Sequence record: NZ_KX443406.1
Direction: 5' to 3' (one strand)
From: a plasmid
DNA: 64,000 nucleotides
In this document: piece by piece, positions 4,782 to 23,030 of the stretch
Layout of the letters: every line of letters starts with the position of its first letter
Position numbering within the stretch: the first letter of the stretch is position 1
Position numbers and translations under genes: made by a program
Notes under the pieces: generated by a model
What the model was told of the DNA's origin: nothing
Databases searched by the model: none
The model's input: the letters and a program-made list of their open reading frames with translations, nothing else

Positions 4782-5384
4782 AACCGTCGTCAGGTCCTCT
4801 TCGCGCAGAGCCGTTCGGCACTCAGCGATCGCGTCGCAGCACTCCGTGTCGTCGAGGACGCCCTCGACCGCGTCCACTCCGTTGCCGAGGAGCTGAGAAC
4901 TGTCCAGCGCCTCTCCGCCGACACACACCTCGCCGAACAGCTCCACCAGCAGATGGCAGGCGCGGAGCTCGCGGCCGCCGATGCGCGCACCGCCGGCGAA
5001 CAGCTCGAAGAGGTCGAACAGAACCTTCGAGCGCAGGTGGACTACCTCGACACCCTCGTCTCGCGAACGCCGCGCCCCTGAGACCCGTAGAACGGCAAGA
5101 AGAAAGCCCCAGCCAGGGGGGATCGGCTGAGGCTTTCGTGCGAGTCCGCAGGACTCACTGGCTGAATCGGGGGGGATTCAAACTGCCGCCCGCAGTCTAC
5201 CGTCACCACCCGACAAGACCGAGGCGCGTGACCAAGATCGCCAACCCGATGCCACGCGTTCGAACGACAGTGCTGCCGCGGCACCGCTACGCGCCGCCTT
5301 GCCATCTATCACTCCCTGGTCACCAGAGCGCGGAGGCCGCGACGGCGCAGTGCCGGCGGGTAGAGTCACCTCGATCAATCCGCT

Positions 5385-5425
5385 GGGGCAGCCAGGCCCA
5401 AGCACGAACCCGGAAGGGAACTTTC
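5385..5425 (+). promoter_or_regulatory. Conserved leader copy 1 (GGGCagccagGCCC hairpin + CCCGGAAGGGAAC RBS block)
   Basis: Diverged copy of the motif found at 5893, 9137 and 14500; directly precedes ATG 5426. Confidence 0.5.
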
Positions 5426-5797
5426 ATGGCCGACACGGACCGCCGCTCCGGCGCAGAACTGCGCGCTCGACGGGAGCTGCTCGGCCTCAACGCGCAGGAG
5501 ACCGCCGCACTACTCGGTGTCGACGAACGCGTGATCCGAAGATGGGAACAAGGCAAGCCCATCCCCGAAGGAGTCGTCGCCGAACTCGCGCAACTCGAAC
5601 AGGTCCAGGACGACGTGATCCGGGAACTCGAAGACGCCGGCAAAGACAGTGGCGTCATCACCACCTACAAGGGCGACGGCGTCGTACCCGACCGCCCCGA
5701 ACTGCCTGCCCGCTGGCACCGCGTCGCGGCCGCAACCGCGGTCCGCAACCTCGCAGCCGAGGGAGTCGACACCCGAATCATCTACGCCGAAAGCTGA
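5426..5797 (+). CDS. XRE-family (Cro/CI-type) HTH transcriptional regulator
   Basis: LRARRELLGLNAQETAALLGVDERVIRRWEQGK is a classic HTH_XRE; RBS GGAAGGGAA. Confidence 0.7.
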   Translation: MADTDRRSGAELRARRELLGLNAQETAALLGVDERVIRRWEQGKPIPEGVVAELAQLEQVQDDVIRELEDAGKDSGVITTYKGDGVVPDRPELPARWHRVAAATAVRNLAAEGVDTRIIYAES

Positions 5798-5841
5798 CTA
5801 CCAGGCGATACGTGCGGATCCGGTCCGTTCTGGCATTGTGC

Positions 5842-5881
5842 CGTTACAACGATTGAACGGCTAAACGTTGTAACGTAGAAT
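5842..5881 (+). promoter_or_regulatory. Promoter (-35 TTGAAC 5853-5858, 17-bp spacer, -10 TAGAAT 5876-5881) flanked by inverted operator half-sites CGTTACAACG / CGTTGTAACG
   Basis: Near-consensus hexamers; perfect 10-bp inverted repeat straddling the -35. Confidence 0.55.
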
Positions 5882-5892
5882 GGTTGTAGCGA

Positions 5893-5938
5893 GCAGGGCA
5901 TCAGGCCCAGCTCACGATCCCCGGGAAGGGGACTCCTC
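5893..5938 (+). promoter_or_regulatory. Conserved leader copy 2 (GGGCATCAGGCCC hairpin at 5896-5908 + CCCGGGAAGGGGACTCC RBS block)
   Basis: Sequence identity with copies 3 and 4. Confidence 0.55.
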
Positions 5939-6130
5939 ATGCACGACTATGTCGTGGCGATCAGCCATCGCGACGGTGACCACGTCGGCTCCGTCAAAGT
6001 CTCAGCAGCGTCAGCGCCCGATGCGGCGGACGCCGGAATCTTGACCATGCTCGACGGGCGGCCGTTGCCGTCGAGCGACTACCGGGCGATCGCCGTTCCG
6101 CTGCGCCAGCTCGCACCGGCCTCCCACTGA
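5939..6130 (+). CDS. Small hypothetical protein (63 aa)
   Basis: ORF immediately after leader copy 2 and its promoter. Confidence 0.45.
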   Translation: MHDYVVAISHRDGDHVGSVKVSAASAPDAADAGILTMLDGRPLPSSDYRAIAVPLRQLAPASH

Positions 6131-6207
6131 CCTTCGGATCGGCGGGGCGCCCGACGGCAAGCCCCGCCGATCCCTCTCCTTGACCAGCCCTGGAAAGGGA
6201 CACGGCA

Positions 6208-7206
6208 ATGAATCTTGCAATCGAATCATCCGGCACCCCAACGGACGAGCTGTTCAACAACCTCTCGAACATCCTCAGCACCGTCGCGTGGGCCGGCATG
6301 GCTCTCGGGGTCATCATCATGGTCGTCAGCATGGGTCGGTTGGCTTTCGCCTACGACTCCTACGCCTGGTCCAGTGCCCTTCGCGGAATCATCGGGGGAG
6401 TGGGAGCCATCGTCGGCTTCGGACTCGCCGCACTACTCGGTGCGGCCGGCTCCGCCTCCGACGCTCCCGCCGAGCCAGCAGAATCAGAACCGTCCCCGGC
6501 TCCGCAGCCGGTTCCGATCCCGACCCCGGCCCCTGATCCGACCCCGACTGACGTCGGCGACTCCACCCCCGCTGGTTTCGACATCAATCCCATGATCCTG
6601 CTCGCTGCCTTCGGCGCGATCGGGTTCGTCGTCGTCACCTGGTTCGCCGTGTCCAACTTGCGAGCCCGCCGCGCCGAGCGCCGCGAGGAGCGAGAAGCCC
6701 GCGAGCGCGACTGGGCGACCGGTCAGGCCGTGTACAAGGGCGTCCTCGACGACTACAGCGCCTATCTGCTCGATCCCTTCGCGTGGCTCCAACGGCCCAT
6801 CCTCGAAGACGTCGACGAGCCGCTGACGGCCGCGTTCCTCGAAGCGCTCGCCCACGCCCAGGCGCTCGACCTCGACGTCGTCCCCGCCGACCAGAACCGA
6901 ATCGACCAGTTCCGCACCGCGGCCCACGAACTCCGGGCAGCCTGGGACAAGGCCGACGAGAACGCCCGCCGCATCGGCACCAGCATCTACGAGCGGTCCA
7001 GCCGCAACAAGCTCCGCAAGGCCGCCTACGCGCTCCGCACCGCACTCGACACCTCCGCCACCGCAGCAGAGCGTCAAGCCGCCACCGAGACCGTCAAGCG
7101 ACTGACAGACGGCCTGGTCAAAGCGCCCGAACGCGTCCTCAGTGCCGTCACCGCGGCCATCGACACAGCACGTCGCAAGGAACTCCCTGTCGGACTCAAC
7201 CAGTAG
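6208..7206 (+). CDS. Membrane protein with Pro-rich linker and C-terminal coiled-coil region (hypothetical)
   Basis: RBS GGAAAGGGA; two or three TM segments; PAPQPVPIPTPAPDPTPT linker. Confidence 0.55.
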   Translation: MNLAIESSGTPTDELFNNLSNILSTVAWAGMALGVIIMVVSMGRLAFAYDSYAWSSALRGIIGGVGAIVGFGLAALLGAAGSASDAPAEPAESEPSPAPQPVPIPTPAPDPTPTDVGDSTPAGFDINPMILLAAFGAIGFVVVTWFAVSNLRARRAERREEREARERDWATGQAVYKGVLDDYSAYLLDPFAWLQRPILEDVDEPLTAAFLEALAHAQALDLDVVPADQNRIDQFRTAAHELRAAWDKADENARRIGTSIYERSSRNKLRKAAYALRTALDTSATAAERQAATETVKRLTDGLVKAPERVLSAVTAAIDTARRKELPVGLNQ

Positions 7207-7245
7207 CTTGTAGACCGAGCCCCCACCAGACGCAGAACGGACTCC

Positions 7246-7557
7246 ATGGATCAGATGAACGCATTCACATGGATCGGCCTCGCCCTCCTCATCGTCGGCG
7301 GCGGCATCGTGATCTGGGTGTCGCCGATGGTGCTCGCCCTACAAGCCAAGGGGCTTCCCGGAGGGAAGTACCGCACCCGGCACGGCATCGGGCTCGGGCT
7401 CGCCGCATTTGGCGCCATCCTGATGAACATCGGCACGCTGAGCTCGAGCGCCGGCGTCGCGATGAAGATCGCCGCCCTCGCGGCCGCAGTGATCCTGCTG
7501 GGAACACTGGTATGGGCCACTGTGCGGATGCGCGACCAGAGCGGAGCAGCTGAGTAA
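7246..7557 (+). CDS. Small integral membrane protein (103 aa, about 3 TM)
   Basis: Hydrophobic profile; followed by a terminator. Confidence 0.5.
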   Translation: MDQMNAFTWIGLALLIVGGGIVIWVSPMVLALQAKGLPGGKYRTRHGIGLGLAAFGAILMNIGTLSSSAGVAMKIAALAAAVILLGTLVWATVRMRDQSGAAE

Positions 7558-7573
7558 CCACCGGGACCGACAA

Positions 7574-7604
7574 GAAGGCGGGGCACATGCCCCGCCTTCT
7601 TTGT
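7574..7604. terminator. Bidirectional intrinsic terminator
   Basis: GAAGGCGGGGC-ACAT-GCCCCGCCTTC (11-bp stem) then TTTGTGTC; sits between convergent genes. Confidence 0.65.
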
Positions 7605-7622
7605 GTCTATATGGCTCCCGAT

Positions 7623-8198
7623 CTACTCCGGTGCGGGCGGCGGGGGCCCGATCACGGGGGGAGGGGGAGCCTTCGGCAGCGGCGGCAGCGGTTTGCCTCC
7701 CAGATATTCCAGGGCGTTTCGAACCAGTCCGGGTTCGGCCTCTGCGACGACGCGGCGGCGCTCCTTGATTCGCCGCCAGGTGCGTATGCGTCCGATCCTT
7801 GGGTGCCAGACCACGCTTTGAAGGTCCCACGCGGCCTCGCGCGATAACCGGGTTAGCTCCGGACCAATTTTGCCTGCGTCGTAGTCGAGAGGTTGATCTT
7901 CCGCATCTTGCAGGCTCTTCCACCACGCTACATATGCGAGCAGTTTGTAGTGCTCGACAACGTTTCTCGGGGTTGCGGCAACGATCGCCGCCTTCTCCAA
8001 CTCAGCGATCGCCTGCTGAAAGGGCGGGGCGTCCGGGAGGTCGCTGGGGCCGGCCCACCGAGCGGCCTCGCAGTCGGCCAATCGACGCAGGACCTCGCTG
8101 CGCACCTGCCGTCGCCCTTGGGCGCCGATCAAATACTGACCGACGAATGACCCGATACCGAGCGCGCCAAGGATGGATGCGAAAGCGGAGAGGTCCAC
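7623..8198 (-). CDS. Hypothetical protein with N-terminal TM helix and Pro-rich C-terminus
   Basis: ORF track; divergent from the 8243 gene. Confidence 0.45.
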   Translation of the reverse strand: MDLSAFASILGALGIGSFVGQYLIGAQGRRQVRSEVLRRLADCEAARWAGPSDLPDAPPFQQAIAELEKAAIVAATPRNVVEHYKLLAYVAWWKSLQDAEDQPLDYDAGKIGPELTRLSREAAWDLQSVVWHPRIGRIRTWRRIKERRRVVAEAEPGLVRNALEYLGGKPLPPLPKAPPPPVIGPPPPAPE

Positions 8199-8242
8199 CA
8201 GCGCAGACTAGCCCGCGCCGCGGCACAACTAGTGTCCTCGAG

Positions 8243-8893
8243 ATGACGACAGGTCGAGATGAAGGATCACGCTCGAAGTGGACGCGCGGTACTCGAATGT
8301 GGGGGGCCGCGACTGTCTTCGCGGTACTCGTCCTTTGGGGAGGCACGCAGCTGGCCATTGCACGGGGGCAAGATGTGGCCTGGTACACGGGATTCGGCCA
8401 GTGGCTCGGTGCGCTGGGTAGCCTGATCGCAGCCGCCGTAGCGTTGGGAATCGCCACCACGGACCGGCGCCAGGCCGCGAAGCTGCGGACGGCTGAGCAA
8501 GACGACCGCGACGCAGACCTAGCCCGCGAAGCAGGGCTGGTACGGATTCAAATCGAACACGTGCAGGATGGTGTTCCGCCGATGCCCGTGAAGGCCATCA
8601 CCGTGAGGAACTGGAGGCAGTCCCGACTGTTCGAAGTGGAACTGGTGAGGATCGCGGTGACCAGCGCGCAAACGAAGGCTGAGATCGGAAGTGTCCGGAT
8701 GCACTTCCCCAACGGTCGGAGCTGGGGGGTAAACAAGCATGACGTGAAGCTGACACCGATCGACCACGGGATGACTTTGTGGGTCTTCCCAATGAACGGT
8801 GCTGTGCCGAAATACGGGGCGCTCCAATACACCGATGAAGCCGGGCGGCGGTGGGAGGTCGACACCAAGGGGATCATCGCGCGGAAGCTGTAG
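8243..8893 (+). CDS. Hypothetical membrane-anchored protein
   Basis: ATG 8243 in frame with track ORF 7799-8893; hydrophobic N-terminal segment AATVFAVLVLWGG... The long upstream part of the track ORF is Arg/Pro low-complexity and overlaps the divergent gene. Confidence 0.45.
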   Translation: MTTGRDEGSRSKWTRGTRMWGAATVFAVLVLWGGTQLAIARGQDVAWYTGFGQWLGALGSLIAAAVALGIATTDRRQAAKLRTAEQDDRDADLAREAGLVRIQIEHVQDGVPPMPVKAITVRNWRQSRLFEVELVRIAVTSAQTKAEIGSVRMHFPNGRSWGVNKHDVKLTPIDHGMTLWVFPMNGAVPKYGALQYTDEAGRRWEVDTKGIIARKL

Positions 8894-9099
8894 GGACTGA
8901 GGTTCCTGCCCCGCCGGGTCGTCATTATCGCGGCGGCTCGTCGCTGCGTACCCCTGGCCCGCTCCGCTCTACCAGGGGCAATGCCTACCTGCGGCAGGTA
9001 CTGCACTCCTCGTCCACCGCACCATTCGTCTCTTGCCGGCGGGGCCGGGGAACGGTTGAAACAACACCGAAAAACAGGCCGCCATCAGGCATTACGTAT

Positions 9100-9127
9100 T
9101 GCAAACAGCTATATTGTTGGATAGAAT
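9100..9127 (+). promoter_or_regulatory. Promoter (-35 TTGCAA 9100-9105, 16-bp spacer, -10 TAGAAT 9122-9127)
   Basis: Near-consensus hexamers upstream of leader copy 3. Confidence 0.55.
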
Positions 9128-9136
9128 GAGAGGGCG

Positions 9137-9179
9137 GTAGGGCATCAGGCCCAGCCGCCGACACCCGGGAGGGAAACTC
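9137..9179 (+). promoter_or_regulatory. Conserved leader copy 3 (GGGCATCAGGCCC 9140-9152 + CCCGGGAGGGAAACTC)
   Basis: Sequence identity with copies 2 and 4. Confidence 0.55.
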
Positions 9180-9473
9180 ATGGACACCGATCTGATCGAG
9201 CAGACCGTCATCGTCACCGCAACCATCGCCCAGGAGGCGGACGGCCACACCAACACGGTCGACCTCGAGGCGCACCTGGACGGCGCAGGCTGCGTCCTCC
9301 CGCCCGTCTGGGCGCAGAGTCTCGTTGCCGCGCAGGCCGACCCGGGGGAGTGGAGCACTGACATCGCCGACCGGGTCCTCGCGGGCCACGGATACCGCCG
9401 CACCGACGAGTGGCTCGATGACGACAGCGGATGCTGGACCGCGACCGTCGAGCACATCGCCAGCGCATCCTGA
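9180..9473 (+). CDS. Small acidic hypothetical protein (97 aa)
   Basis: ORF directly after leader copy 3. Confidence 0.45.
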   Translation: MDTDLIEQTVIVTATIAQEADGHTNTVDLEAHLDGAGCVLPPVWAQSLVAAQADPGEWSTDIADRVLAGHGYRRTDEWLDDDSGCWTATVEHIASAS

Positions 9474-9546
9474 CACCATCGGATACCGGCAGCAGTTGGG
9501 CCGGGCCACTGGGTTCCGGCCCAACGCATACGAGGGGGAGAGCCAC

Positions 9547-10116
9547 ATGCAGGACGTCGAGCACGACGAGACGAACGCGTTCGTCGACGAGCCGACCGAC
9601 GACCCGGGCAGCGAGTACACCGAGCCCGAACTCGACCCCAAGGCTCACATGCTCTGCGCCGCCGTGTGGACCCGAGACGACACCACCTTGAGGTTCGTCG
9701 TCGAGCGGATGACCGAGGCCGACTTCGCGAACCCCTTCCACCGCCCTGTTTTCGCGGCGATCCGGGATGCGGTGCTGGCCGGCCACCCGCACGACCCGGC
9801 TAGCGTCAGCATGGCGCTCGGTCGCGCAGGCAGCCAGGCCGTACCGGCCGCCGTCCACAACCACTTCCGCGCGGCGCTCACCCTGGGGTCGTCCGCGGGC
9901 GCGCTGCGCTACTACGCCGCTGACGTCGTCGCTGTTGCGTACCGACGGAGCTTCCATGAGCTGGCGGCCACGATGGCGCACGCGGCAGCCGGGGCCGCGG
10001 AAGATCAACTGTTCCCGATCCTGGTCGACCTGGGCACCCGGCAGCGCAGCGAGATGAATCGACTCCGGTCCCTCCGCGACGACCCACTGCCCACGACGGC
10101 GACCGACCAGGCGTGA
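9547..10116 (+). CDS. Stand-alone DnaB-helicase N-terminal-domain protein
   Basis: RBS GAGGGGGAG; AHMLCAAVWTRDDTTLRFVVERMTEADFANPFHRPVFAAIRDAVLAGHPHDPASVSMAL matches the DnaB N-terminal domain consensus pattern. Confidence 0.5.
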   Translation: MQDVEHDETNAFVDEPTDDPGSEYTEPELDPKAHMLCAAVWTRDDTTLRFVVERMTEADFANPFHRPVFAAIRDAVLAGHPHDPASVSMALGRAGSQAVPAAVHNHFRAALTLGSSAGALRYYAADVVAVAYRRSFHELAATMAHAAAGAAEDQLFPILVDLGTRQRSEMNRLRSLRDDPLPTTATDQA

Positions 10117-10162
10117 CGCGGGGTCCAGGCTGCAATATTCCCGTTCGCAATAGGATGGGCGC

Positions 10163-10747
10163 ATGATGATCGGATACGCGCGGGCCGAGGAAGGCCACGA
10201 CGAGGACCAGCAACGCTCGTCGCTCGTCGCGCTGGGAGTCCAGCCCGATCACATCCATATCGACCGCGGTCTACGCGGGACCAGGAACGACCTGCCCGCC
10301 CGCACGGCCATGCTCGCACGCCTCACCGCCGGCGACGTCATCGCGGTCACCGGACTCGAGCGACTGGCCCGCTCCGCTGCCGAGCTGGGCGAAGTCGCTG
10401 GCGTGATCGAGCAGCGCGGCGCATCACTTCGCGTCGGATCGACCGTTTACGACCCGGACACCGAGACCGGCCGCACCGCGTTCGCCATGCTCACCCAGAC
10501 CTTCCCCGACTTCCAAGCCGGAATCTTCCAACTTCGGCTGTCCGGGCCGCGCGCGAAAGCCAAAGCTGCAGGACGGTATCCGGGCGGCAAGGCGAAGCTC
10601 ACACCAGAGCAGAGCCGTGCAATGTTCGAGCAGTACCAGTCCGGCGAGAAGACAGTCGCCGACCTGCAGAAGGAACACGGGCTGAGCAAGTCCGGTGTGT
10701 ACGTGTACCTGCGGCAGGAACGCGACGCCCGCAACAACACTGCCTAG
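10163..10747 (+). CDS. Serine-recombinase (resolvase/invertase) homologue lacking the catalytic Ser; probable DNA-binding derivative
   Basis: MMIGYARAEEGHDEDQQ replaces the canonical GYARVSTxxQ. The remaining resolvase-fold blocks and a C-terminal HTH (GEKTVADLQKEHGLSKSGVYVYL) are retained. Confidence 0.55.
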   Translation: MMIGYARAEEGHDEDQQRSSLVALGVQPDHIHIDRGLRGTRNDLPARTAMLARLTAGDVIAVTGLERLARSAAELGEVAGVIEQRGASLRVGSTVYDPDTETGRTAFAMLTQTFPDFQAGIFQLRLSGPRAKAKAAGRYPGGKAKLTPEQSRAMFEQYQSGEKTVADLQKEHGLSKSGVYVYLRQERDARNNTA

Positions 10748-10930
10748 ACCACGCAATCGGAATTGCCCTCGCTCCTGCCGATACCTGTTCGGGCCGCACC
10801 TCGACTGAGCCGGAGATTGCCGCTGGGTATCAAAGGAGACGAACGTGCCCTACCCCCAGTGGGTGGTGGCGGACGATGGACTCGCCCCCGACGCAAACCC
10901 AGGCAGAGCACGCCCACTGAGGAGGCTGCG

Positions 10931-11014
10931 ATGTTCGATCTTCCGTTCTGGGGGCCGCTCACGCCCGTGGTGATCGCAGTGGCCAACGCGCTCGACTGGC
11001 TGGGGGTGTGGTGA
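10931..11014 (+). CDS. Tiny ORF 1 of 4 (27 aa, MFDLPFWGPLTPVVIAVANALDWLGVW)
   Basis: RBS GAGGAGG 7 nt upstream; stop overlaps the next start (TGATG). Confidence 0.25.
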   Translation: MFDLPFWGPLTPVVIAVANALDWLGVW

Positions 11015-11100
11015 TGGCACCGCTCGGCGGCGTCCTCGTCCCGGAGTGGCTGTACGACGTGCTCTACCAACTCTGGCTATGGGGCATTCCGCCGCACTAG
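11014..11100 (+). CDS. Tiny ORF 2 of 4 (28 aa, MAPLGGVLVPEWLYDVLYQLWLWGIPPH)
   Basis: Start overlaps the ORF1 stop; Trp/Tyr/Leu-rich. Confidence 0.25.
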   Translation: MAPLGGVLVPEWLYDVLYQLWLWGIPPH

Positions 11101-11114
11101 CAGGAGAGAAGCTC

Positions 11115-11219
11115 ATGGGTGACACGTTCTGGTTTCTGCCGTTGCCATTCGAGACGCTCCGATGGCTGGCTGCGACGTACCCATGCCTGGTCGACTTCCG
11201 CCAGGCGTGTGGGCGATAA
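11115..11219 (+). CDS. Tiny ORF 3 of 4 (34 aa, MGDTFWFLPLPFETLRWLAATYPCLVDFRQACGR)
   Basis: RBS AGGAGAGAAG. Confidence 0.25.
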   Translation: MGDTFWFLPLPFETLRWLAATYPCLVDFRQACGR

Positions 11220-11229
11220 GGAGACGGTC

Positions 11230-11337
11230 ATGCTCGACTACGGATTCTTCGGCCGCACCCTCGGCCCTCTCGGCGAGGCGATGGACATTGTCATCTACTG
11301 GATCGCCACAGGCGTGCGGCTGATGCCGCACGCATAG
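11230..11337 (+). CDS. Tiny ORF 4 of 4 (35 aa, MLDYGFFGRTLGPLGEAMDIVIYWIATGVRLMPHA)
   Basis: RBS AAGGAGACGG. Confidence 0.25.
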   Translation: MLDYGFFGRTLGPLGEAMDIVIYWIATGVRLMPHA

Positions 11338-11339
11338 CG

Positions 11340-11680
11340 CGCGAATCACCGAGGCCCTTCTCGACAATTTCCCCGGGGTGCGTTGCACCGTTGTGCGCCT
11401 GTGGCGCACCCCGAAACGAGCTCCGCTGCGCTCCGCCCCTGGAAAAGACTTCTTCCTTTTTCCCTTCTGGCTTCCGATTTTGACCGGCGGTGACCTCCGC
11501 GCAACCCCTTGGCGCTGCGCGGCCTGACGGCTCCGAAAATTCTCTCCCCCGCTGCGCTCCTCCAAGATTTTTCGACCCCAGGGGTTGCACTCCGGCCCCC
11601 TCATACCGGTCCAAATACTCCATGCCAGAAGGGCAAAAGAACGGGCGGGGGAGAGACCCGTCCCCGAGTGAGGAGGGCGT
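11340..11680. repeat. Repeat-dense, comparatively AT-rich non-coding region (candidate origin/oriT-like)
   Basis: GGGGTGCG...CGCACCCC palindrome; direct repeats CGCTGCGCTCC x2; GCAACCCC/GGGGTTGC inverted pair; T-runs. Confidence 0.3.
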
Positions 11681-11847
11681 CATGCGTCGCGTTGAGGCGG
11701 AAGTCGATTCGAAGGACGAGATCGCCGAGATCGTCGAGTTGCTCGACGGAAACCCCTGGAACTAGATCAGCGCCCGAGAAATGAGTGAGTCGGGACAGAA
11801 GGTAGCTGCCCCGACTCGCTCTCCCGAACTGTAGGAGAGAGGCCATC

Positions 11848-13398
11848 ATGACCGCAACGACCACCCCCGAACTGCTCACCGTCGATCCCGCCACCCTCGA
11901 GATCGGTGACAACGTCCGCGACGAGGTCGACCTCGACGCGACACCCGAGTTCGTCGAGTCCATCGCAGAACACGGTGTGCTGCACCCGATCCTGGCAGAG
12001 CGCCGGAATGACGGCACCATCTTGGTCACCGATGGCCAGCGCCGACTTCTCGCCGCCCGCGTCGCGAACCGGACCAGCGTGCCCGTCATCATCCGGCCCC
12101 AGGGGAATGGAACCGACAACGCTCGCAAGGCCGCTCGCATCGGCCAGCAGATCGTCTCCAATGACCAGCGCGAAGCCCTCACCGATGGCCAGCGCGCCGC
12201 CGGCATCGCCGCCATGCTCGACCTGGTCCTGTCCCAGACCGCCGTCGCCAAGGCAGCCAGCGTCTCCCGCGACAGGGTCAAGACCCTCGCGACGGTCGGC
12301 GCATCGAAGGCCGCTCGCGCCAGCGTGGACGAGCATCAGTTCACCATCGAACAGGCCGCGACCATCGCCGAGTTCGAGGAAGCCGGCGACACCGAGGGCA
12401 TCAACCGCCTGCTCTCCTCTGGCAGCCACTACCAGTTCGACTACATGGCCGAGCGTCTGCGTTGTGACCGGGCGGAACGCATCGCACACGCCGAGGCAGC
12501 CGCGCCGTACGAGGCCAAGGGCTTCACCATCCTCGACGGCTACAACTACCACCCGGTCACGTTCGAGCACGTCCTCACCGAGACCGGCGAACCGATCACC
12601 CTCGAGACGGTCGAAGCTGACGCCTCCCGCTGGGGCGTCCGGCTGAGCTGGACCGAGGCGTGGTTCGACCGCCAGAGCGGGGCAGAGGTCGCCGAGGACG
12701 AAATCGACTGGGACACCCACGAGAACCCCGACCTCGAAGCCGAGGACGGCCTGATCCACATGAACAACATCGAGACCCGCCGCGTGTGGGACCGCGAGTT
12801 CCACCTGCTCGACCCCGGCAACCTCGAGGGCAGCGGCCTCCAGCTGAGCGATGTCGCCAAGGTCATGGTCGCGCGCAGGACCGGACGCGCTGCCGCAGTG
12901 CCGGCGACCGCCGAAGAAGCAGCCGCCCAGATCGAGGCGGAGCGCGAGGAACGCCGCCGCGTCCGAGAGCTGAATAAGCGCGCCGAGGCGGCGAACACCG
13001 TCCGACGCACCTTCCTGCGTACCCTGCTCGGACGCACCAAGCTCCCCGCGAACGCCTCCGTGTGGATCGCGGTCACCCTCGCGAGCGATCCTCACCTGCT
13101 GGCCGAGTACCACGCGAGCGACTGCTTCGGAGAGCTACTCGGGATCAAGGACTACCGACTCTCGAACAACGCCGTCCGGGACCTGGCCGTCGCAGCCAGC
13201 GACGCCCGCGCCCAGGTCATCACCTTCGCCCTGGTGATCGCCGCGATGGAGGCCCGCATGGTCAAGGACGCCTGGCGGACCCGGCCCCGAGGCGCAACCG
13301 CCTACCTCGAACTCCTCGCCGCGAACGGCTACGAACTGTCGGACGTCGAGAAGGCGATCGCCGCGCACATCAAGCCCGAGACCATCAGCCTCGACTAG
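11848..13398 (+). CDS. Large ParB/Sulfiredoxin-domain protein (ParB/KorB-like)
   Basis: N-terminal ParB fold (LLTVDPATLEIGDNVRDE...HGVLHPILAERRNDGTILVTDGQRRLLAAR); 516 aa; RBS GGAGAGAGG. Confidence 0.75.
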   Translation: MTATTTPELLTVDPATLEIGDNVRDEVDLDATPEFVESIAEHGVLHPILAERRNDGTILVTDGQRRLLAARVANRTSVPVIIRPQGNGTDNARKAARIGQQIVSNDQREALTDGQRAAGIAAMLDLVLSQTAVAKAASVSRDRVKTLATVGASKAARASVDEHQFTIEQAATIAEFEEAGDTEGINRLLSSGSHYQFDYMAERLRCDRAERIAHAEAAAPYEAKGFTILDGYNYHPVTFEHVLTETGEPITLETVEADASRWGVRLSWTEAWFDRQSGAEVAEDEIDWDTHENPDLEAEDGLIHMNNIETRRVWDREFHLLDPGNLEGSGLQLSDVAKVMVARRTGRAAAVPATAEEAAAQIEAEREERRRVRELNKRAEAANTVRRTFLRTLLGRTKLPANASVWIAVTLASDPHLLAEYHASDCFGELLGIKDYRLSNNAVRDLAVAASDARAQVITFALVIAAMEARMVKDAWRTRPRGATAYLELLAANGYELSDVEKAIAAHIKPETISLD

Positions 13399-13414
13399 AC
13401 CCGCACGCGAAGGA

Positions 13415-13438
13415 GGCCCGCACCGCACGGTGCGGGCC
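13415..13438 (+). terminator. Hairpin GGCCCGCACC-GCAC-GGTGCGGGCC after the ParB-like gene (weak T-tract)
   Basis: 10-bp perfect stem. Confidence 0.4.
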
Positions 13439-13477
13439 TTCGCCCCGTCTGCTGCACACTTGAACGAACGAGGAGGG

Positions 13478-13720
13478 GACATGACCGGCGAGCAGCACTT
13501 CGATCAGGATCCAGGCCCAGACGCCTGGGCCGACGACACGCTCGGCGCAGCCGAAGCGATGAGTGACGACGAGCTCGACGCAGCAATCGACGCCCTGGCC
13601 GCTCGCGAGCGACGGTGCCTCATCAGGGGGAACGTCGAGTACGCCAAGTCCCTCGCGCACGACAAGTGGGTCTGCATCACCGTTCGGACGAACAGAAACC
13701 GGCCGTGGCCTGGTAGTTGA
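13478..13720 (+). CDS. Hypothetical acidic protein (80 aa)
   Basis: RBS GAGGAGGGGA; ATG 13478. Confidence 0.45.
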   Translation, partial: DMTGEQHFDQDPGPDAWADDTLGAAEAMSDDELDAAIDALAARERRCLIRGNVEYAKSLAHDKWVCITVRTNRNRPWPGS

Positions 13721-13768
13721 CGTTCCGAACCGGCCTTCGCGCCAGCGCGGACCGCCCCACCGGAATCC

Positions 13769-13812
13769 CTATTTTGTAGTACACAAATAGCCAATTTTGT
13801 AGTACAGTATTA
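13769..13812 (+). promoter_or_regulatory. AT-rich operator with two direct repeats ATTTTGTAGTACA just upstream of the toxin gene
   Basis: The repeats at 13771-13783 and 13794-13806 are the only AT-rich patch in this region. Confidence 0.45.
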
Positions 13813-13814
13813 GC

Positions 13815-14081
13815 ATGGCAATCAAGTGGACCGGCAGCGCCGACAAGCATGGAATCGACCATGCCGACGCGACCCATGCAATCGCGCACGCGATGTACGT
13901 CGAGGAGGAGTTCGATGATCCTCGACCGCCGTCGACGATTCGGCCCACCCTGTTCATTGGTCCGCCGCGAAAGCTGGGCGGCCCCTTGCTCGAAGTGATG
14001 GTGGAGATCGGCCCTCGCGACATCACGGTCTTTCACGTGATGGAGGCCCGCCAGAAGCATCTCGACCGGATGGAGGACTGA
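13815..14081 (+). CDS. BrnT-like (DUF497) toxin
   Basis: IKWTGSADKHGIDHADATHAI fits the W-x4-KHGI-x-F/H-x-EA BrnT signature; 88 aa; stop overlaps the downstream start (TGATG). Confidence 0.5.
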   Translation: MAIKWTGSADKHGIDHADATHAIAHAMYVEEEFDDPRPPSTIRPTLFIGPPRKLGGPLLEVMVEIGPRDITVFHVMEARQKHLDRMED

Positions 14082-14446
14082 TGACGACCATGAAGACGGG
14101 GGTGGCGGCACAGATGGAGGAAGCCATGACCAGCAAGAAGAAGAGCTACGACGAGGCAGCCGACTGGGCCGAACACGAGATGACCCTGCCGGAGAACTCG
14201 AAGACGGCCCGCAGGGGAGCCGCCGCCGCCGAGGCGGGGCGAGCGCTCCTCGCGCGCGCCCATGCCGGGCGGCCGAGTCTGGATCCGCAGGCCAAGCCGG
14301 GGGAGGAATCTCCCCGGCGACAGGTGCGACTGCCCCTCGCGGTGAGCGAGCAGGTGGACGCGCTGGCGGCCGCCCAGGGTCGGCGCGCCGCCGAGGTCAT
14401 GCGCGACGCGATCACGATGTACGTCAACGAGCACGCAAGCCGCTGA
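14081..14446 (+). CDS. BrnA-like antitoxin with C-terminal RHH
   Basis: RQVRLPLAVSEQVDALAAAQGRRAAEVMRDAITMYV is an RHH block; toxin-first order typical of BrnTA. Confidence 0.5.
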   Translation: MTTMKTGVAAQMEEAMTSKKKSYDEAADWAEHEMTLPENSKTARRGAAAAEAGRALLARAHAGRPSLDPQAKPGEESPRRQVRLPLAVSEQVDALAAAQGRRAAEVMRDAITMYVNEHASR

Positions 14447-14499
14447 CGTGCCGTCCCGTCGGCGCGACGCCAGCGCCGGCGGGTAACGGAGCTTGAACA

Positions 14500-14545
14500 G
14501 GGCAGGGCATCAGGCCCAGCCCATCCGCCCAGGGAAGGGAACCTC
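14500..14545 (+). promoter_or_regulatory. Conserved leader copy 4 (GGGCATCAGGCCC 14505-14517 + CCAGGGAAGGGAACCTC)
   Basis: Sequence identity with copies 2 and 3. Confidence 0.5.
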
Positions 14546-15017
14546 ATGGAACCGATGAGCACCGCACTGCTGCCGGACTCTGCACGCGTGCCGGCGCCCG
14601 AATCGATCCGTGCCGCGCTGCAACGGCCGACTATGGCGGACGGTGTTGACCGCGGTGCTCACTTCGTAGGGCTGCAGATGCGGTTCGGGGATGGAGTTCA
14701 CCATCGCCTGCACTTCGTCGCGGTCGGTGATCGAGGGGTCGAGCCAGTGCTCCCAGAACGACGCGGGCAGGATGACAGGGGAGCGGTCATGGATGTGTCC
14801 GGTCGCGTCCGTCGCCTGTGTGGTGAGCACGGTGGTGGTCCACAGCCAGCCGACCCGGGTCGTCCTCGGTCTTGGACGGGTCCGGCCACAGCTCGTAGAG
14901 GCCGGCCATCGCGAGGACCGGGTCGTCGCCGTGGAGGAGGTACGGATTTCCTCCGTACCTTTTATCCATGGACCTGATTCCTGAGGCGTAGTCACTCCCG
15001 TCGCGCCCACCGCACAA
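14510..15017 (-). pseudogene. SOS-response-associated peptidase (SRAP/YedK, DUF159) remnant: N-terminally truncated and frameshifted
   Basis: NPYLLHGDDPVLAMAGLYELWPDP in one frame (14787-15017) and IHDRSPVILPASFWEHWLDP in another (below about 14818). The N-terminal Cys2 region is missing. Confidence 0.5.
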
Positions 15018-15510: not shown

Positions 15511-15870
15511 ATGGCAAGAAAAGTAGTCACACTCACAGAGTTCTTCGACGACTTCGATGGTGAGAAGATCGACGACGGCCTGTCCGAGACCATCGAGTTC
15601 ACCGTTCAAGGGACTAGTTATAGGATGGACCTCCGTCCGAAGAACGCCGAGAGGTTCCGCAAAGACCTTGAAAAGTGGATTGCAGCCGCAGTAAAGGTGG
15701 GCGGGCGTGCCAGTCGTTCTAAGCGGTCGGGGGTCGTGCCCGGGGGCTCTAGGAGATCCAAGGAAGGGCTAGCGGCGATTCGGAACTGGGCCGCCCGCAA
15801 CGGCTACCAAGTCTCCACCCGGGGGCGCATCGCCCGGGAAGTAGTTGAAGCCTACGACGCGGCACACTAG
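15511..15870 (+). CDS. lsr2: Lsr2 nucleoid-associated xenogeneic silencer
   Basis: MARKVVTLTEFFDDFDG...TIEFTVQGTSYRMDL...IRNWAARNGYQVSTRGRIAREVVEAYDAA matches Lsr2 end to end; RBS GAGGGAGG. Confidence 0.8.
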   Translation: MARKVVTLTEFFDDFDGEKIDDGLSETIEFTVQGTSYRMDLRPKNAERFRKDLEKWIAAAVKVGGRASRSKRSGVVPGGSRRSKEGLAAIRNWAARNGYQVSTRGRIAREVVEAYDAAH

Positions 15871-16551
15871 CCTCCATGTTCTTTCCTACCTCCGTGCACG
15901 CCCGGACTTCGGACCGCAGCTACCTCGCCAGCGGTTTCCCGGGCCTAATCCCACCGTGGCCCCTGGAAACTGGATGTGCGCGGAATGCTTACGAAAGAAG
16001 GATGACGTCTGCTGCAACAGAGGGAGGAGTCCGGCTATCTTTCAGTGAATCGATTGGCCTCACACCAAAAGGATCCTTCAGTGCCCGGTATTCCGGGCAA
16101 AGCACCTAGTCGACGATCGCCTCCGTCACATATTTCGAGTTTCTTACGCTTCAAAGAGGTGATCGGCTCCGGCGCAGAGGGGGCGCTAGTATCGATTCTG
16201 GTGCGGACGTACTCCGTACAATCCGCACTGGCTGGTCGGCAGCAGCCCCCGACCGCGCCGGCCAGCCCTTGTGGTGGGGAGGGGGTAGGAGGCGGCCCCC
16301 GGTGACGTGCTTGGTGCTGGGGGCCGTTTTAGTGCCGGGCGGAGTTCAATTGAGGCGGCGAGCATGAGTGACCAGCAGCCATACCTCGCAACCGGCGTTC
16401 TGGCTTCGATGTACAAAGATATTCCCGGCGCCGGGATGGGGGGCACTGGTACCCCTAGTGCGATGCGAGAACATCTCTTTCGGCTGGATCCCAATCGCGG
16501 ACAACCGGTAGGTCGCTGGAGCCTCATCTGGATGTGCCGGACATTCCTCTC

Positions 16552-17376
16552 CTACCCGTTAAGGCATGCGTCCGCAAGCGTGCTGATCGCGCAGGTAGCT
16601 CCGGCGGCGCTGCGCACCTCAGCGCCTGCCTGGAGGCCGTTTTGACTAGGAACAACGCTGAAGGTTTGTGGCATCGTCATCGGGGAAGTAAATCGATAAT
16701 CGAAGACCTTATCGACGATAGAAATGTCATTTCGGCGCATGTGCTCGCCCATCATGATGGCCAGCAGCGGACCATGGATTACAAGGCCGACGTAGCCCTC
16801 TCTATGACACCAATCGAGATCGTAGTGGATCCGATGGGCATTATATGTGAGGGCAGAAAACCGGAAAAGTAATCGTTCGTCAACAGCAACATCCAGGGTG
16901 GGGCCTTGTAGCGGCGTGGGTGATGTTGCGGGACGGGGAATCGGGTCTGAACCCGCGGCTCGATAGAGGATGTCTTGCTCTTCATGAATGATGAGGACGC
17001 GGTCCTGAAAAATATCCTGTTGGACCGTGGTAATGGTTAGCGGACCGGTTCGCCCCTCTTTGGTAACGGTCTTTTTGACGGACATGACCTTAGTCGCAGG
17101 CTTACCAATCTCAAGAAGTTGATGGGTTGTCACTCGACCGCCAGCGAACATGCGGCGTAGACCTGGCCCTGGTGGTACAGGTATACCGACAACTGGGTGG
17201 CCGTCTTCGCCCAGGTGTCGCTCTGGAGTACGTTCAAGGAGGTAGATCCAATGCCAGAGTGGCGGGACCCTGTCGCCCGGGGCGCAAGGTATTGTGAGGT
17301 CGAGCATTGCAGCGAGGGATTCAGCCGGCTCGCTAGCGATGATTTCGGTCCGTTCGATTTTGTCAGGCTGGGACAC
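16552..17376 (-). CDS. MaoC-like/double-hotdog (R)-hydratase family protein
   Basis: PLWHWIYLL...GHP...RRMFAGGRV block and a C-terminal hotdog region (GYVGLVIHGPLLA). Confidence 0.5.
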   Translation of the reverse strand: MSQPDKIERTEIIASEPAESLAAMLDLTIPCAPGDRVPPLWHWIYLLERTPERHLGEDGHPVVGIPVPPGPGLRRMFAGGRVTTHQLLEIGKPATKVMSVKKTVTKEGRTGPLTITTVQQDIFQDRVLIIHEEQDILYRAAGSDPIPRPATSPTPLQGPTLDVAVDERLLFRFSALTYNAHRIHYDLDWCHREGYVGLVIHGPLLAIMMGEHMRRNDISIVDKVFDYRFTSPMTMPQTFSVVPSQNGLQAGAEVRSAAGATCAISTLADACLNG

Positions 17377-17485
17377 GATTTCGTCTCCTCGCAGCTTGAG
17401 GTTCCTGTCTTGTTGAGGGCGGCTGCTCGGCGTCGTCGTGGTGGATAGAACTCAGTAGAAAGAAACGCGAGAAGAAGCCGACCAA

Positions 17486-18247
17486 TCAGAGCTGGCCGGG
17501 ACAAACCAGAAGATCGCTGCCTTCCGGTTGTGGAAGAGCATGGGGAGACTCGTCTGACTCACTGCGTGGTCTTCTGGCGATGAACTTGGCTACGGACCCT
17601 TCTACAACGACATTTACTCTCTCAAAGAAGGCCTCAAGGACGTCGACCAGACCATCCTTATCGTCCTTACTATTGTGAAAGCCACCCAATCGGCTGTTAA
17701 AGACGCCACGCAGGGTTCGTCCAAGGAGGTTGTGACGAACGCCGACTCCAAGGATGGTTGCTCCAAAGAACACCCCATTCTCTTTGAGAGCGTCGGAGAT
17801 GTAGCGGATTGCGAGGCTCTTCTCGGACCAGGTTCCGGGAATGCGGTGGAAAACAAGATTGGCTGCGATCGAATCAAAACAGCCCACCGACGGCGCGATG
17901 GGCGCCATCACGCTGCTGATATAGACCCGTGTAAGTAGACCCTGATCGGTTAGGCGCTTTTTGGCCGCAATTGTCTCCCGCGTCTTGGGGCCTAGTATGT
18001 ATGTTTCTGCCATGGTCGTCGGGGGATTCGCTTGTTCCAGAAACCAAGCTGACCGCGCGCCGACTTCGAGGTGACGAGTGCCAATGTTGTCGTCGTAGTA
18101 CTGAAGAAGACTAGCAGTGGGACACTTCCAAACTAGCGAGTTGCTCCACGCTGAAACACGGCTGTTGTACTTTGCAAGCATGTGCTGTCCGTAATTCAAG
18201 GCGCCGTCGGGCTCGGCGCAGATGGGGTCGTTATCTCTCATGCTCAT
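17486..18247 (-). CDS. Putative class-I SAM-dependent methyltransferase-like protein
   Basis: Weak motif-I-like HLEVGARSAWF; assignment tentative. Confidence 0.35.
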   Translation of the reverse strand: MSMRDNDPICAEPDGALNYGQHMLAKYNSRVSAWSNSLVWKCPTASLLQYYDDNIGTRHLEVGARSAWFLEQANPPTTMAETYILGPKTRETIAAKKRLTDQGLLTRVYISSVMAPIAPSVGCFDSIAANLVFHRIPGTWSEKSLAIRYISDALKENGVFFGATILGVGVRHNLLGRTLRGVFNSRLGGFHNSKDDKDGLVDVLEAFFERVNVVVEGSVAKFIARRPRSESDESPHALPQPEGSDLLVCPGQL

Positions 18248-18493
18248 CAGTAGTTAGTGCTCCTCTCCTGCTTCTGCGCAAAAGAGCGCAGAAGAACTAG
18301 GAGGCGACTGGTCTGGCGGCGGGGGGCGAGGAGGAGCCGGGGATGAACGCTTGCGTGCGAAATCCTGGTGCCTGGCAACGAGGTGCGCCCTAGGCTTCAG
18401 AGCTTTGGAATGTAACTGTCTTGATTGTTAGCATAGGTTGGTGTCGCGGTCAAGAGATTGCCTATCGCCGCTTCGTTCGAGATGCTTCCGTAG

Positions 18494-19381
18494 GTGAATG
18501 TTGACGAACTCCGCTGGTTTGTGGCGTTAGCGGAATCGGGGCACATGCGCGATGCGGCTGACGACCTACACATATCTCAACCGACCCTCTCGCGGGCGCT
18601 TGCTCGGATCGAACGTCAGGTTGGCGTACCCCTCTTCGACCGGGTGAACCACCGCCTGCAGCTCAACGACTACGGCCGTATCATGCTTGAGCATACTCGT
18701 CGGAGTCTGACTGAACTTCACTCAGCCAGTGAGCGGATTGCTGCGCTCCGTAACCCTGAGTCTGGCACTGTTCGGCTAGGCTTTCTTCACTCCCTTGCGA
18801 GTTGGTTTGTGCCCGAGATCATCCGGGTGTTCCGCGAGAGCGCGCCGCAGGTGAACTTCGCACTGGATCAGGCCCCGAGCGGGGACATCGAAGCCATGCT
18901 GGCTCGGGGGGAGATTGATGTCGCAGTGATTGGGCCACGACCCGCCGCAGACGAGTTCGACTGGTATGAGCTGTATGTAGAACGCCTTTGCCTTGCTGTT
19001 CCTGAATCTCACCCACTAGCGGGGCACGCGACTATCCGCGTAGCAGACGCCCTAGATGATGCATTCGTTATGCTACGAAAGCCCTTTGGGCTTCGCAGGT
19101 TGACCGATGAGCTGTTCGCGGCTGCTGGCGTCGTGCCCCGCATCGTCTTCGAGACGATTGAGATCCCCACCATCGAGGGCCTGGTGGCTGCGGGTTTCGG
19201 TGTCGCTGTGGTTCCTTCGCCCCGCCCCACTAAAGAAACCGAGGGTGTCAGGTACGTACCCCTGGACGATGTAGGAGCCTTTCGTCCGATTGGCCTGGCC
19301 TGGCCAGTAGGACGAGAACCCTCGCCAGTTGTCGCGCGATTCATCGCTTTCCTAGTAAGCCGCGGGCAAGGGGGCAATTAG
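18494..19381 (+). CDS. LysR-family transcriptional regulator
   Basis: N-terminal HTH LRWFVALAESGHMRDAADDLHISQPTLSRALARIE plus a substrate-binding domain. Confidence 0.8.
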   Translation: MNVDELRWFVALAESGHMRDAADDLHISQPTLSRALARIERQVGVPLFDRVNHRLQLNDYGRIMLEHTRRSLTELHSASERIAALRNPESGTVRLGFLHSLASWFVPEIIRVFRESAPQVNFALDQAPSGDIEAMLARGEIDVAVIGPRPAADEFDWYELYVERLCLAVPESHPLAGHATIRVADALDDAFVMLRKPFGLRRLTDELFAAAGVVPRIVFETIEIPTIEGLVAAGFGVAVVPSPRPTKETEGVRYVPLDDVGAFRPIGLAWPVGREPSPVVARFIAFLVSRGQGGN

Positions 19382-19522
19382 ACGTGCCGACCAAGGGTGT
19401 GACGACCACTACGGGCCCTCGCTCAGGAGTGGAACGCAAACAGGCTTGATGCGATCTGCGCATCACGGGGGCTGTGAAGCGAATTGGACACTAGGCCCTA
19501 ATCCCTCCTAGCGTCGGACACC

Positions 19523-20824: not shown

Positions 20825-20884
20825 CAAACATGACGAACTGACAAACGTGTTGTGCGGATCGAATAAGCCGAGCCGACGAGAGGA

Positions 20885-21442
20885 ATGCAAATGAATCTGG
20901 CGCACGTAACTCGAAAGTTCCTGGTAAGTACAGCTGTTCCTGTCACCCTCGTAATAGCCTTCGCTGCCCCATTCCAGTTTTCCGCACCGCTCGCGAGCGC
21001 GGCCACAAGCGATCTGTCTATTCGGCGCGACGGCTCGGCACATTATAGCGACAGTACGCTATCTTTGCGTGCTTCTTCTGATTCTCCTGAGCCCACGACT
21101 CATGGTGCGCAGCAGCAGTGGGCAGTGCACGGCGTGTTGGCGAGCGCGCTCGTGTACCAACTGCTCACGCTCACGGTTGATGGAGGCGAGCAATTTCAGG
21201 GCTATGCCGGCGGTGTTTCCTTTCCAGGTGGAGCAGCGGTCTGGGGCACGCTTTTCACAGACGACATACAGCGGTTATACGACCAGACCGCATCGTTCCA
21301 GTTCAACGCGGTCGGGCCATATCTCAACGTCAACTTCTTCGACCGCCACGGCACATTACTCGGCCACGCACAATTAGGCGGAGTGAGCTCGGTAATCGGT
21401 ATTGGAGGGGGCTCGGGGACTTGGACCGGCGACGTCGCGTAG
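20885..21442 (+). CDS. Secreted paralogue P1 (signal peptide + conserved C-terminal domain family)
   Basis: Signal peptide ...PLASAATS; C-terminal blocks VYQ..TV, GG.S.PG, WGTLFT, RLYD.T.SFQFNAVGPYLNVNFFD, LLGH and GIGGGSGTW shared with five other ORFs. Confidence 0.6.
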   Translation: MQMNLAHVTRKFLVSTAVPVTLVIAFAAPFQFSAPLASAATSDLSIRRDGSAHYSDSTLSLRASSDSPEPTTHGAQQQWAVHGVLASALVYQLLTLTVDGGEQFQGYAGGVSFPGGAAVWGTLFTDDIQRLYDQTASFQFNAVGPYLNVNFFDRHGTLLGHAQLGGVSSVIGIGGGSGTWTGDVA

Positions 21443-21619
21443 TCCAAAAAATCAACTCAGAACGTTCGGACAGTAAACGATTCAGTGAGGTTTAGCGTGC
21501 ACTCCCTGAAAACTATCGGACTTCCTCTGGACCTGCTTTCGAATCCCAATCAAATCCAACATAGCCCAGCCTTCCCTCCAGAACACCGTGTCGAGCTGAC
21601 GCTAGTGGGAATAATCGAC

Positions 21620-21925: not shown

Positions 21926-22003
21926 GAAGCGCCGGGACTATTCAGGAAATAGAAATGTCAGTATTGCTTGAACTGGGCAGGGTGTAAGTTAGGTGGGTTT
22001 AGC

Positions 22004-22762: not shown

Positions 22763-23030
22763 CTGCTTATATTGCGCACCCGGAAACTCCGGGCAGCGAT
22801 CAGGTGGAAGCATTCTTCTTGGCTGAGCCTGTATCCTCCCGCCCTGCTCGCGGAGGGTCGGGAAGGTTGGGCGAGGGAGCATCTGTTTTACTGCGTCTCC
22901 AGGACGTCACAAAACGGTCATAATTTGTCACGATTAGGGGAAGGTTGAAGAGTTAGTATGAATCTGCCCGCGTTGCTCGCTCGAAGCAGCGAGCGCTTTT
23001 ATTAGGGCTCCAAAATACCCCGGAAGGAGA

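Follow-up and report, generated by a model that had tools for sequence, protein, structure and literature searches.

The stretch of DNA analysed here, referred to as the window, comprises 64,000 nucleotides (nt) of plasmid sequence record NZ_KX443406.1 and contains four copies of a leader of about 50 nt, each composed of two hairpins (HP1 and HP2), lying on the + strand and ending at an ATG. We assign a probability of about 0.6 to the reading that this leader is the RNA target of the plasmid's own Aca2-like protein and that its copies form an Aca2-type regulon of backbone genes, translational and probably also transcriptional, by analogy with characterised Aca2 proteins. This is the best explanation in view of the homology and fold that the XRE-type protein encoded behind the first copy shares with Aca2, the published binding of Aca2 to hairpins and the repeated co-occurrence of protein and leader. 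Over the 10.5-kb region holding the leaders, the sequence matches that of pVAPB1593 (NC_011150.1), a porcine-type virulence plasmid of Prescottella (Rhodococcus) equi, at 100% identity, and the four copies sit in the replication/partition backbone, upstream of the low-GC vap island.

The leader copies were located with the covariance model R2, which was run over all 64 kb with filters off and matched these four leaders only (59.7, 52.6, 48.4 and 30.6 bits; next best, 14 bits), precisely those listed in the original prediction, an earlier reading of this DNA. Copy c1 (5382–5428; ATG at 5426; 30.6 bits, E = 2.8e-5) precedes the Aca2-like XRE gene, and consists of HP1 at 5382–5403 (GCU-G-GGGC-AGCCAG-GCCC-A-AGC) and HP2 at 5409–5418 (CCC-GGAA-GGG). 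Copy c2 (5891–5941; ATG at 5939; 59.7 bits) stands before a 63-aa open reading frame (ORF) and genes of 332 and 103 aa, with HP1 at 5891–5913 (GAGC-A-GGGC-AUCAG-GCCC-A-GCUC) and HP2 at 5918–5932 (UCCCC-GGGAA-GGGGA). Copy c3 (9133–9182; ATG at 9180; 48.4 bits) precedes an acidic 97-aa ORF, a DnaB-N-like gene and a resolvase gene; its HP1 spans 9133–9159 (GGCGGU-A-GGGC-AUCAG-GCCC-A-GCCGCC) and its HP2 9164–9173 (CCC-GGGA-GGG). Copy c4 (14500–14548; ATG at 14546; 52.6 bits) is an orphan, with HP1 at 14500–14522 (GGGC-A-GGGC-AUCAG-GCCC-A-GCCC) and HP2 at 14528–14539 (CCC-AGGGAA-GGG).

The GGGC/GCCC hairpin described earlier is thus present in every copy, but it is longer than had been proposed. 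The 4-bp GGGC/GCCC duplex forms the upper stem, closed by the loop AUCAG in c2–c4 and AGCCAG in c1, and is followed below by a 1×1 purine mismatch (A·A in c2–c4, G·A in c1) and a covarying lower stem of 3–6 bp, which differs in sequence between copies while pairing is kept (GCU/AGC in c1, GAGC/GCUC in c2, GGCGGU/GCCGCC in c3 and GGGC/GCCC in c4). The ribosome-binding site (RBS) block that had been placed downstream also exists, although the 16-mer quoted for it is exact in no copy, and it is itself a hairpin of the form CCC-GGAA-GGG. This HP2 starts 4–10 nt past HP1 and has a stem of 3–5 bp, in which the Shine-Dalgarno GGG(G) is base-paired to a CCC(C) run across a GGAA-type loop; the GGAAGGG-type Shine-Dalgarno occupies the loop and the 3' arm, 5–8 nt before the ATG in all copies. 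The core 16-mer GGGCATCAGGCCCAGC has three exact occurrences in the window, compared with none in 100 shuffles. The RBS block is not enriched in the window past the four leader copies, and a general RBS style of the plasmid was therefore discarded as an identity. Three further candidates were rejected: an intrinsic terminator (a U tract is lacking, and every copy directly adjoins a start codon), an integron attC-like site (RBS and start-codon spacing) and a riboswitch (too small, and without a conserved ligand pocket).

Minimum-free-energy folds of 11 copies all yielded HP1 with its internal mismatch. Covariation was assessed in a set of 39 distinct leader copies from Rhodococcus and mycobacterial plasmids, in which 95.1% of the HP1 cells were paired and both sides had changed in six of the eight pairs; one pair alone occurred as CG (22 copies), GC (9), UA (4), UG (2) and AU (1). 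The corresponding values for HP2 were 82.1% and three of five pairs, and in an earlier alignment (A6), in which HP2 had not been fitted to any structure, it was still 79% paired. The covariation score was 0.358, against 0.157 ± 0.012 in shuffles (0 of 500 reached it) and at most 0.123 in slid-partner controls. Selection on structure, claimed in the original prediction, is borne out by these figures, as is covariation in homologous elements, the check it had named, which is strong in both helices and extends over both plasmid groups. The purine-purine mismatch of HP1 and its loop motif, A-N-C/U-A/C-G, are likewise conserved.

G·U pairs are frequent in the set (five GU at one pair, more elsewhere), and the orientation of the leader is always that of its gene. 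Together with the covariation in both helices, this argues for an RNA structure, or at least a single-strand one, rather than a duplex palindrome. The alternative that HP1 is a duplex DNA operator—an inverted repeat GGGC-N5-GCCC at which a dimeric repressor, possibly the XRE protein, would form a roadblock—draws on the position of HP1 just downstream of promoters and on the binding of inverted-repeat DNA by Aca2 proteins: ZF40 Aca2 is a dimeric helix-turn-helix (HTH) autorepressor that binds an inverted repeat over a strong promoter (PMC6765145). However, the frequent G·U pairs would break DNA symmetry, the flanking A..A is not palindromic, and strand and distance to the ATG are fixed. Compensatory changes are free among copies on one plasmid, where a protein reading half-sites would constrain them, and in vitro no binding to DNA was observed for the second repeat of ZF40 (IR2), a potential hairpin in the 5' untranslated region (UTR) (Birkholz 2019; PMC6765145). 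We regard the operator reading of HP1 as improbable.

When plasmids were searched with the leaders by BLASTN, the matches outside the pVAP family were confined to a P. equi plasmid of 431 kb and three plasmids from mycobacteria. The 431-kb plasmid holds a diverged homologue of the locus, and the leader before its 97-aa homologue, GGC-A-GGAC-GCCAG-GUCC-A-GCC, carries a compensatory change from G-C to A-U. Further copies were obtained via XRE homologues, on an R. marinonascens contig and a metagenomic plasmid. A comparison of the 10-kb region with phages gave no match at the DNA level.

Two promoter-like sites, both sigma-70-like, precede the leaders: TTGAAC-17-TAGAAT at 5853–5881 for c2, and TTGCAA (9099–9104)-17-TAGAAT (9122–9127) for c3. 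They are the only sigma-70-like sites on the + strand in 5200–14700. Both had been named in the original prediction, which was off by one for c3, where the site starts at 9099 and the spacer is 17 nt long; the gap of about 7 nt to the hairpin that it had given was measured, from the end of the −10 hexamer to the base of HP1, as 9 nt in c2 and 5 nt in c3. The proposed position of the hairpin just after promoters is conserved in about 30 copies, in which the predicted −10 hexamer begins 13–17 nt before the HP1 base and ends 5–10 nt before it, but it does not hold throughout the window. A transcript starting about 7 nt past the −10 is predicted to begin at or just before HP1 in c2 and c3, and the same projection from sequence places HP1 2–4 nt from the predicted transcript 5' end in the roughly 30 copies. 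For the XRE gene, upstream contexts point to TAGAGT (5361–5366, + strand) as the candidate −10, in a sequence context, CCGGCGG(G)TAGAGT, that is kept in R. marinonascens.

This 5'-terminal placement supports the main rival reading, a purely cis-acting role, in which HP1 would be a 5'-terminal shield against RNase E or J, HP2 would tune ribosome access and the copies would be alike via cassette duplication. The predicted distance of 2–4 nt from the transcription start site (TSS) fits the rule, reportedly established by Emory, Bouvet and Belasco in 1992, that stabilising hairpins must sit at the extreme 5' end, and the keeping of structure while sequence varies agrees with it too. Yet a hairpin needing only stability would be weakened by the conserved purine-purine mismatch, and the loop motif is conserved as well; c1 and other XRE-type leaders lie about 12 nt or more from the predicted TSS and c4 has no promoter, and the recurrence of Aca2-like genes beside the leader, seen in four settings, would go unexplained. 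As a complete account it is unlikely, although such a stabilising role could coexist with protein binding. Placement directly past early-type promoters of mobile-element operons is also what would be expected if the two hairpins were a promoter-proximal antitermination signal, like the lambda nut/boxB or HK022 put RNA, and possible terminator hairpins do occur between genes, e.g. at 6139–6170. The Shine-Dalgarno is, however, inside HP2 at a fixed 5–8 nt from the start codon in every copy, which points to translation rather than antitermination; no N-like or Q-like gene was seen, and we consider this reading very improbable.

The c2 promoter carries a perfect 9-bp inverted repeat, GTTACAACG-N14-CGTTGTAAC (5843–5851 and 5866–5874), which brackets its −35 and, by analogy with the first repeat (IR1) bound by Aca2, is a candidate DNA operator. 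Half-sites near-identical to it recur about 4.4 kb upstream, at 1374–1382 and as an abutting pair at 1430–1447, and the half-sites at 5843–5874 and 1374–1447 may be operators of a DNA-binding protein. The spacer of the c3 promoter carries an AT-rich element, AACAGCTATATTGTT (9105–9119), which is partly palindromic and is present in c3 orthologues too.

The XRE gene behind c1 (5426–5797, + strand) encodes a 123-aa HTH protein, WP_012532592.1, which is proposed as the trans-acting regulator from its Pfam, fold and profile matches. The label of XRE regulator given to it earlier was adequate as far as it went, but by profile and predicted fold the protein is, more precisely, a member of the Aca2/YdiL (DUF1870) family, and RefSeq names it a DUF1870 family protein. 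It matches HTH_31 and the Pfam family PF08965 Aca2_YdiL (formerly DUF1870; 24.3 bits, cut-off 23.8), which is also matched by 19 of 38 relatives (best E = 8.6e-9). The AlphaFold (AF2) model, with a predicted local distance difference test score of 88.9, displays the two-domain fold consisting of an N-terminal HTH and a C-terminal alpha/beta dimerisation domain. With Foldseek, it aligned over its full length to Aca2 (7vjp, 7vjo and 7b5j from ZF40, and 7ezy, another Aca2), with template modelling (TM) scores of 0.60–0.68 for 7vjp, 7ezy and 7b5j, and also to SO3848 (2ox6; TMq 0.78) and YdiL (1s4k), the only structures for which a match to both domains of Aca2 has been reported (PMC8434428). A family profile built from 38 full-length members was searched against the PDB, and its top four matches were Aca2 sequences, aligned end to end (E = 8e-13 to 3e-10). 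The family is broad, with 1603 representative proteins at E < 1e-3. The XRE protein is likely the regulator of the leaders, including its own. Several of its relatives from R. equi and R. marinonascens assemblies (P0008, P0009, P0010 and P0013) are truncated or frameshifted, which may reflect assembly errors or a regulator inactivated in some strains.

Leader and Aca2-like gene were found together well beyond the pVAP family. In mycobacteria, three plasmids were first found from the leader alone. A tblastn search of plasmids with the XRE protein returned no mycobacterial homologue, and Pfam scans of the small ORFs of Mycobacterium sp. JS623 detected no HTH; the tblastn result was at first counted against a link with Aca2, but a profile search then found a 281-aa protein in which a complete Aca2-like module is present twice in tandem, both modules aligning to profile positions 8–115. 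Its gene lies on pMYCSM03 of JS623 (record positions 119052–119897), with a leader copy before it. The tandem protein, which may correspond to an Aca2 dimer in a single chain, occurs in all three leader-bearing mycobacterial plasmids and in nine more (12 in total; 41–100% identity), and two more-distant plasmids found from the protein also carry leaders at gene starts.

The covariance model located about 18 leader copies on pMYCSM03, between record positions 118.9 and 144.7 kb, on both strands and all ending at annotated gene starts, and none within positions 1–100 kb. The mycobacterial-plasmid cassette is conserved as a whole—TTGTCGGTGG, 7–8 nt, GGTAGnnT, 10 nt, HP1, HP2, ATG—and such cassettes are also present in the mycobacterial stretches L008, L010, L026 and L027. 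Those of pMYCSM03 precede genes for DpdA, PAPS reductase, an MPTase-PolyVal peptidase, a 1576-aa methyltransferase-domain protein, DUF4192, DUF4262 and AAA+VWA proteins and many small ORFs, and there are none in the conjugation/ESX half of the plasmid. The cassette region looks like an establishment or anti-defence island, and the conserved −35-region motif TTGTCGGTGG suggests a further DNA-binding factor.

The same association extends to phages and prophage-type loci. In mycobacteriophage Bipper (NC_031253.1, 33965–39324), gene 48 is Aca2-like and a minimum of four leaders are near-identical in form to those of the window, for example GGGC-A-GGC-AUUAG-GCC-A-GCCC; in Bipper and Typha, the Aca2-like gene is near the integrase, at least 4–6 leaders, by another count six or more in each phage, precede unrelated genes, and the promoter element GTCTAGTGAGCTATAA is common to both. 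When viral contigs were scanned by pattern, 65 stretches were returned, to which the covariance model was then applied; it confirmed leaders in 10 stretches from six contigs. An Aca2-like ORF is present in at least three of these six contigs (including L059), compared with none of the 55 unconfirmed stretches. Remote XRE relatives (34–39% identity) are encoded at the end of small-ORF operons beside integrases and lysins, the classic acr-aca layout. In five of seven distinct prophage-type loci, an HP1 and an HP2 of matching design lie before the first gene, downstream of a sigma-70-like promoter that contains an AT-rich repeat; one reads GGGG-AA-GCC-AUCCAG-GGC-AAG-CCUC, and another (L024) GGUC-A-GGGA-AACGG-UCCC-A-GACC and then CCAC-CAGGA-GUGG (R2 E = 0.006).

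Published work supplies the mechanism to which these observations can be compared. According to PMC13551039, which summarises Birkholz 2024, Aca2 binds two conserved 5' UTR hairpins and so blocks the RBS. The same summary distinguishes two classes of Aca2 RNA motif, the proteo-motif and the actino-motif; it states that the motifs start directly after the TSS and occur also between genes inside operons, and that one Aca2 is predicted to serve several neighbouring operons (PMC13551039). The leader has the architecture of an Aca2-type 5' UTR motif, namely two covarying hairpins with the RBS in the second and a co-occurring Aca2-family gene. By analogy with ZF40 Aca2, a dimer of the Aca2-like protein would clamp HP1 and HP2, hide the Shine-Dalgarno and block the ribosome, and translation of the regulator's own gene would be repressed along with that of the others. 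Transcription may in addition be repressed via the repeats in the c2 and c3 promoters. A few backbone operons would be expressed in a burst while the plasmid is new or its copy number high, and an autoregulated shut-off would follow. The 5'-proximal hairpin probably also stabilises the transcript, which is compatible with protein binding. In this scheme, protein binding, repression at the level of translation, an operator function for the repeats in the promoters and the timing of expression are all deduced from the comparison.

Several observations weigh against an Aca2-type regulon. HP2 has only 3 bp in three of the four copies of the window, and no matching family was found in Rfam 15, which was searched with the whole window at the gathering threshold and with 5300–6000 by E-value. 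The putative −10 of c1 (TAGAGT) stands about 15 nt upstream, a greater distance than in c2 and c3, and c4 has neither a −10 hexamer or promoter nor a credible downstream gene. The promoter repeats do not resemble the hairpin sequence, unlike in ZF40, and the leader is at most a putative actino-motif. The Rhodococcus examples all come from related plasmids and therefore amount to one evolutionary instance. R2 misses the prophage-type leaders in L016, L018, L019 and L022, so that the likeness of these distant leaders rests on inspection. The original prediction of a regulon-wide leader that belongs to no known riboswitch class is nevertheless supported, also by the Rfam result, although it had missed the second hairpin and the regulator gene behind c1.

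The orphan state of c4 also bears on a further alternative, that the copies are functionless relics of duplication or recombination at cassette junctions. The ORF behind c4 (14546–14977, 143 aa), presented earlier as a leader-driven gene, is doubtful: its GC content at third codon positions is 0.58, compared with 0.76–0.89 in neighbouring genes, and RefSeq annotates no gene there. In the pVAPA counterpart (pVAPA1037) the leader has decayed, with GCCC changed to GCTC, a shorter spacer and ATG changed to ATC, and it is not followed by an ORF. The backbones of pVAPB and pVAPA are homologous up to about 14555, at c4, so that this copy sits at the border of the vap island; the best reading of c4 is an orphan leader stranded where the backbone meets the pathogenicity island. 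A decaying orphan at this boundary is what relics would look like, but compensatory changes keep both helices across genera, and c2 is 100% identical across 26 plasmid records whose adjacent DNA is 93–99% identical. The relic reading is, in our judgement, exceedingly improbable.

Further features of the region were recorded. The GC content is 0.57–0.61 across window positions of about 16000–30000, compared with 0.64–0.69 elsewhere, and the drop, which begins just past an Lsr2-family gene (15511–15870), is consistent with the horizontally acquired vap pathogenicity island. The 332-aa gene (6208) has an HP2-type Shine-Dalgarno hairpin upstream, CCCU-GGAA-AGGG (6190–6210), without HP1, and its R2 match is weak (E about 1). 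A strong GC-rich hairpin follows the 63-aa ORF at about 6139–6170. The leader-driven ORFs of 63, 97, 332 and 103 aa matched no Pfam or PHROG family of known function, and the 97-aa protein matched no family of either database. This c3-driven protein (9180–9473) is very acidic, with 18 D/E against 3 K/R. DNA mimicry and anti-defence functions are common among the small acidic proteins of mobile elements, and such a role for the 97-aa protein is mentioned here purely as speculation.

Should the Aca2-type reading be correct, a regulator and its four RNA sites would be assigned on the pVAPA and pVAPB plasmids of R. equi, in a region where nearly every annotation reads hypothetical, and RNA binding by an HTH protein would reach from phage anti-CRISPR operons to the conjugative plasmids of Rhodococcus and Mycobacterium. 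A wider proposal is offered tentatively, at a little under even odds: that Aca2-family proteins, including the tandem single-chain form, run plasmid-wide post-transcriptional regulons in Mycobacteriales conjugative plasmids, from four leaders in R. equi to about 18 in pMYCSM03, timing establishment and anti-defence genes (DpdA, PAPS reductase, an ArdC-like peptidase, the giant methyltransferase and small acidic proteins) after transfer, and that the SAS-like motifs of some mycobacteriophages (start-associated sequences; see below) belong to the same system. The leader marks downstream small ORFs, such as that of the acidic 97-aa protein, as candidates for establishment or anti-defence functions, and the covariance model serves as a search tool for leader-driven genes in related plasmids and phages.

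The literature searched contained no paper tying DUF1870 or Aca2 to Rhodococcus or mycobacterial plasmids, and the leader was compared with four known systems. The conserved upstream (CUP) repeat regulon in the leading region of the IncN plasmid pKM101, which Delver and Belogurov are said to have described in 1997, is reportedly controlled by ArdK and ArdR. It likewise places a repeated promoter-bearing cassette before unrelated early or establishment genes of a conjugative plasmid, where it is shut off by plasmid-encoded repressors; by contrast, the CUP elements span several hundred bp, act at the DNA level and belong to Proteobacteria. They are not known to have an RNA hairpin or RBS component. 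With 5' stabilisers of the Escherichia coli ompA leader type, the present leader shares a hairpin within a few nt of the mRNA 5' end (predicted here), but those stabilisers need no conserved mismatch or loop, form no multi-gene families and have no dedicated regulator.

Resemblance was also noted to the SAS and extended SAS, the start-associated sequences described in Cluster K mycobacteriophages, for which neither a function nor a binding partner is known (PMC3203893). Both are short asymmetric elements with a Shine-Dalgarno, situated just upstream of the starts of unrelated genes and in one orientation; about half of the SAS copies have an imperfect inverted repeat upstream, and both types occur in Mycobacteriales mobile elements (PMC3203893). 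The SAS consensus GGGATAGGAGCCC and its 17-bp repeats nonetheless differ in sequence from the leader, while Bipper and Typha carry the leader itself in multi-copy fashion.

The acr-aca2 operons differ in several respects: the host here is a conjugative virulence plasmid instead of a phage, the regulator gene directly follows its leader rather than closing a small-ORF operon, and the promoter repeats are unrelated to the hairpin sequence. No anti-CRISPR gene is known or detectable downstream, and the plasmid locus therefore does not strictly qualify as an acr-aca operon. It does have a regulator of the same family and fold as these operons, and further common traits are a strong promoter of sigma-70 type that carries an inverted repeat, an RNA motif, predicted here to begin right after the TSS in c2, c3 and about 30 other copies, two hairpins with the second at the RBS, a regulator gene under its own motif and several copies before neighbouring operons and within operons. 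The leader is thus not a new class, since the arrangement of protein plus leader corresponds to a published mechanism.

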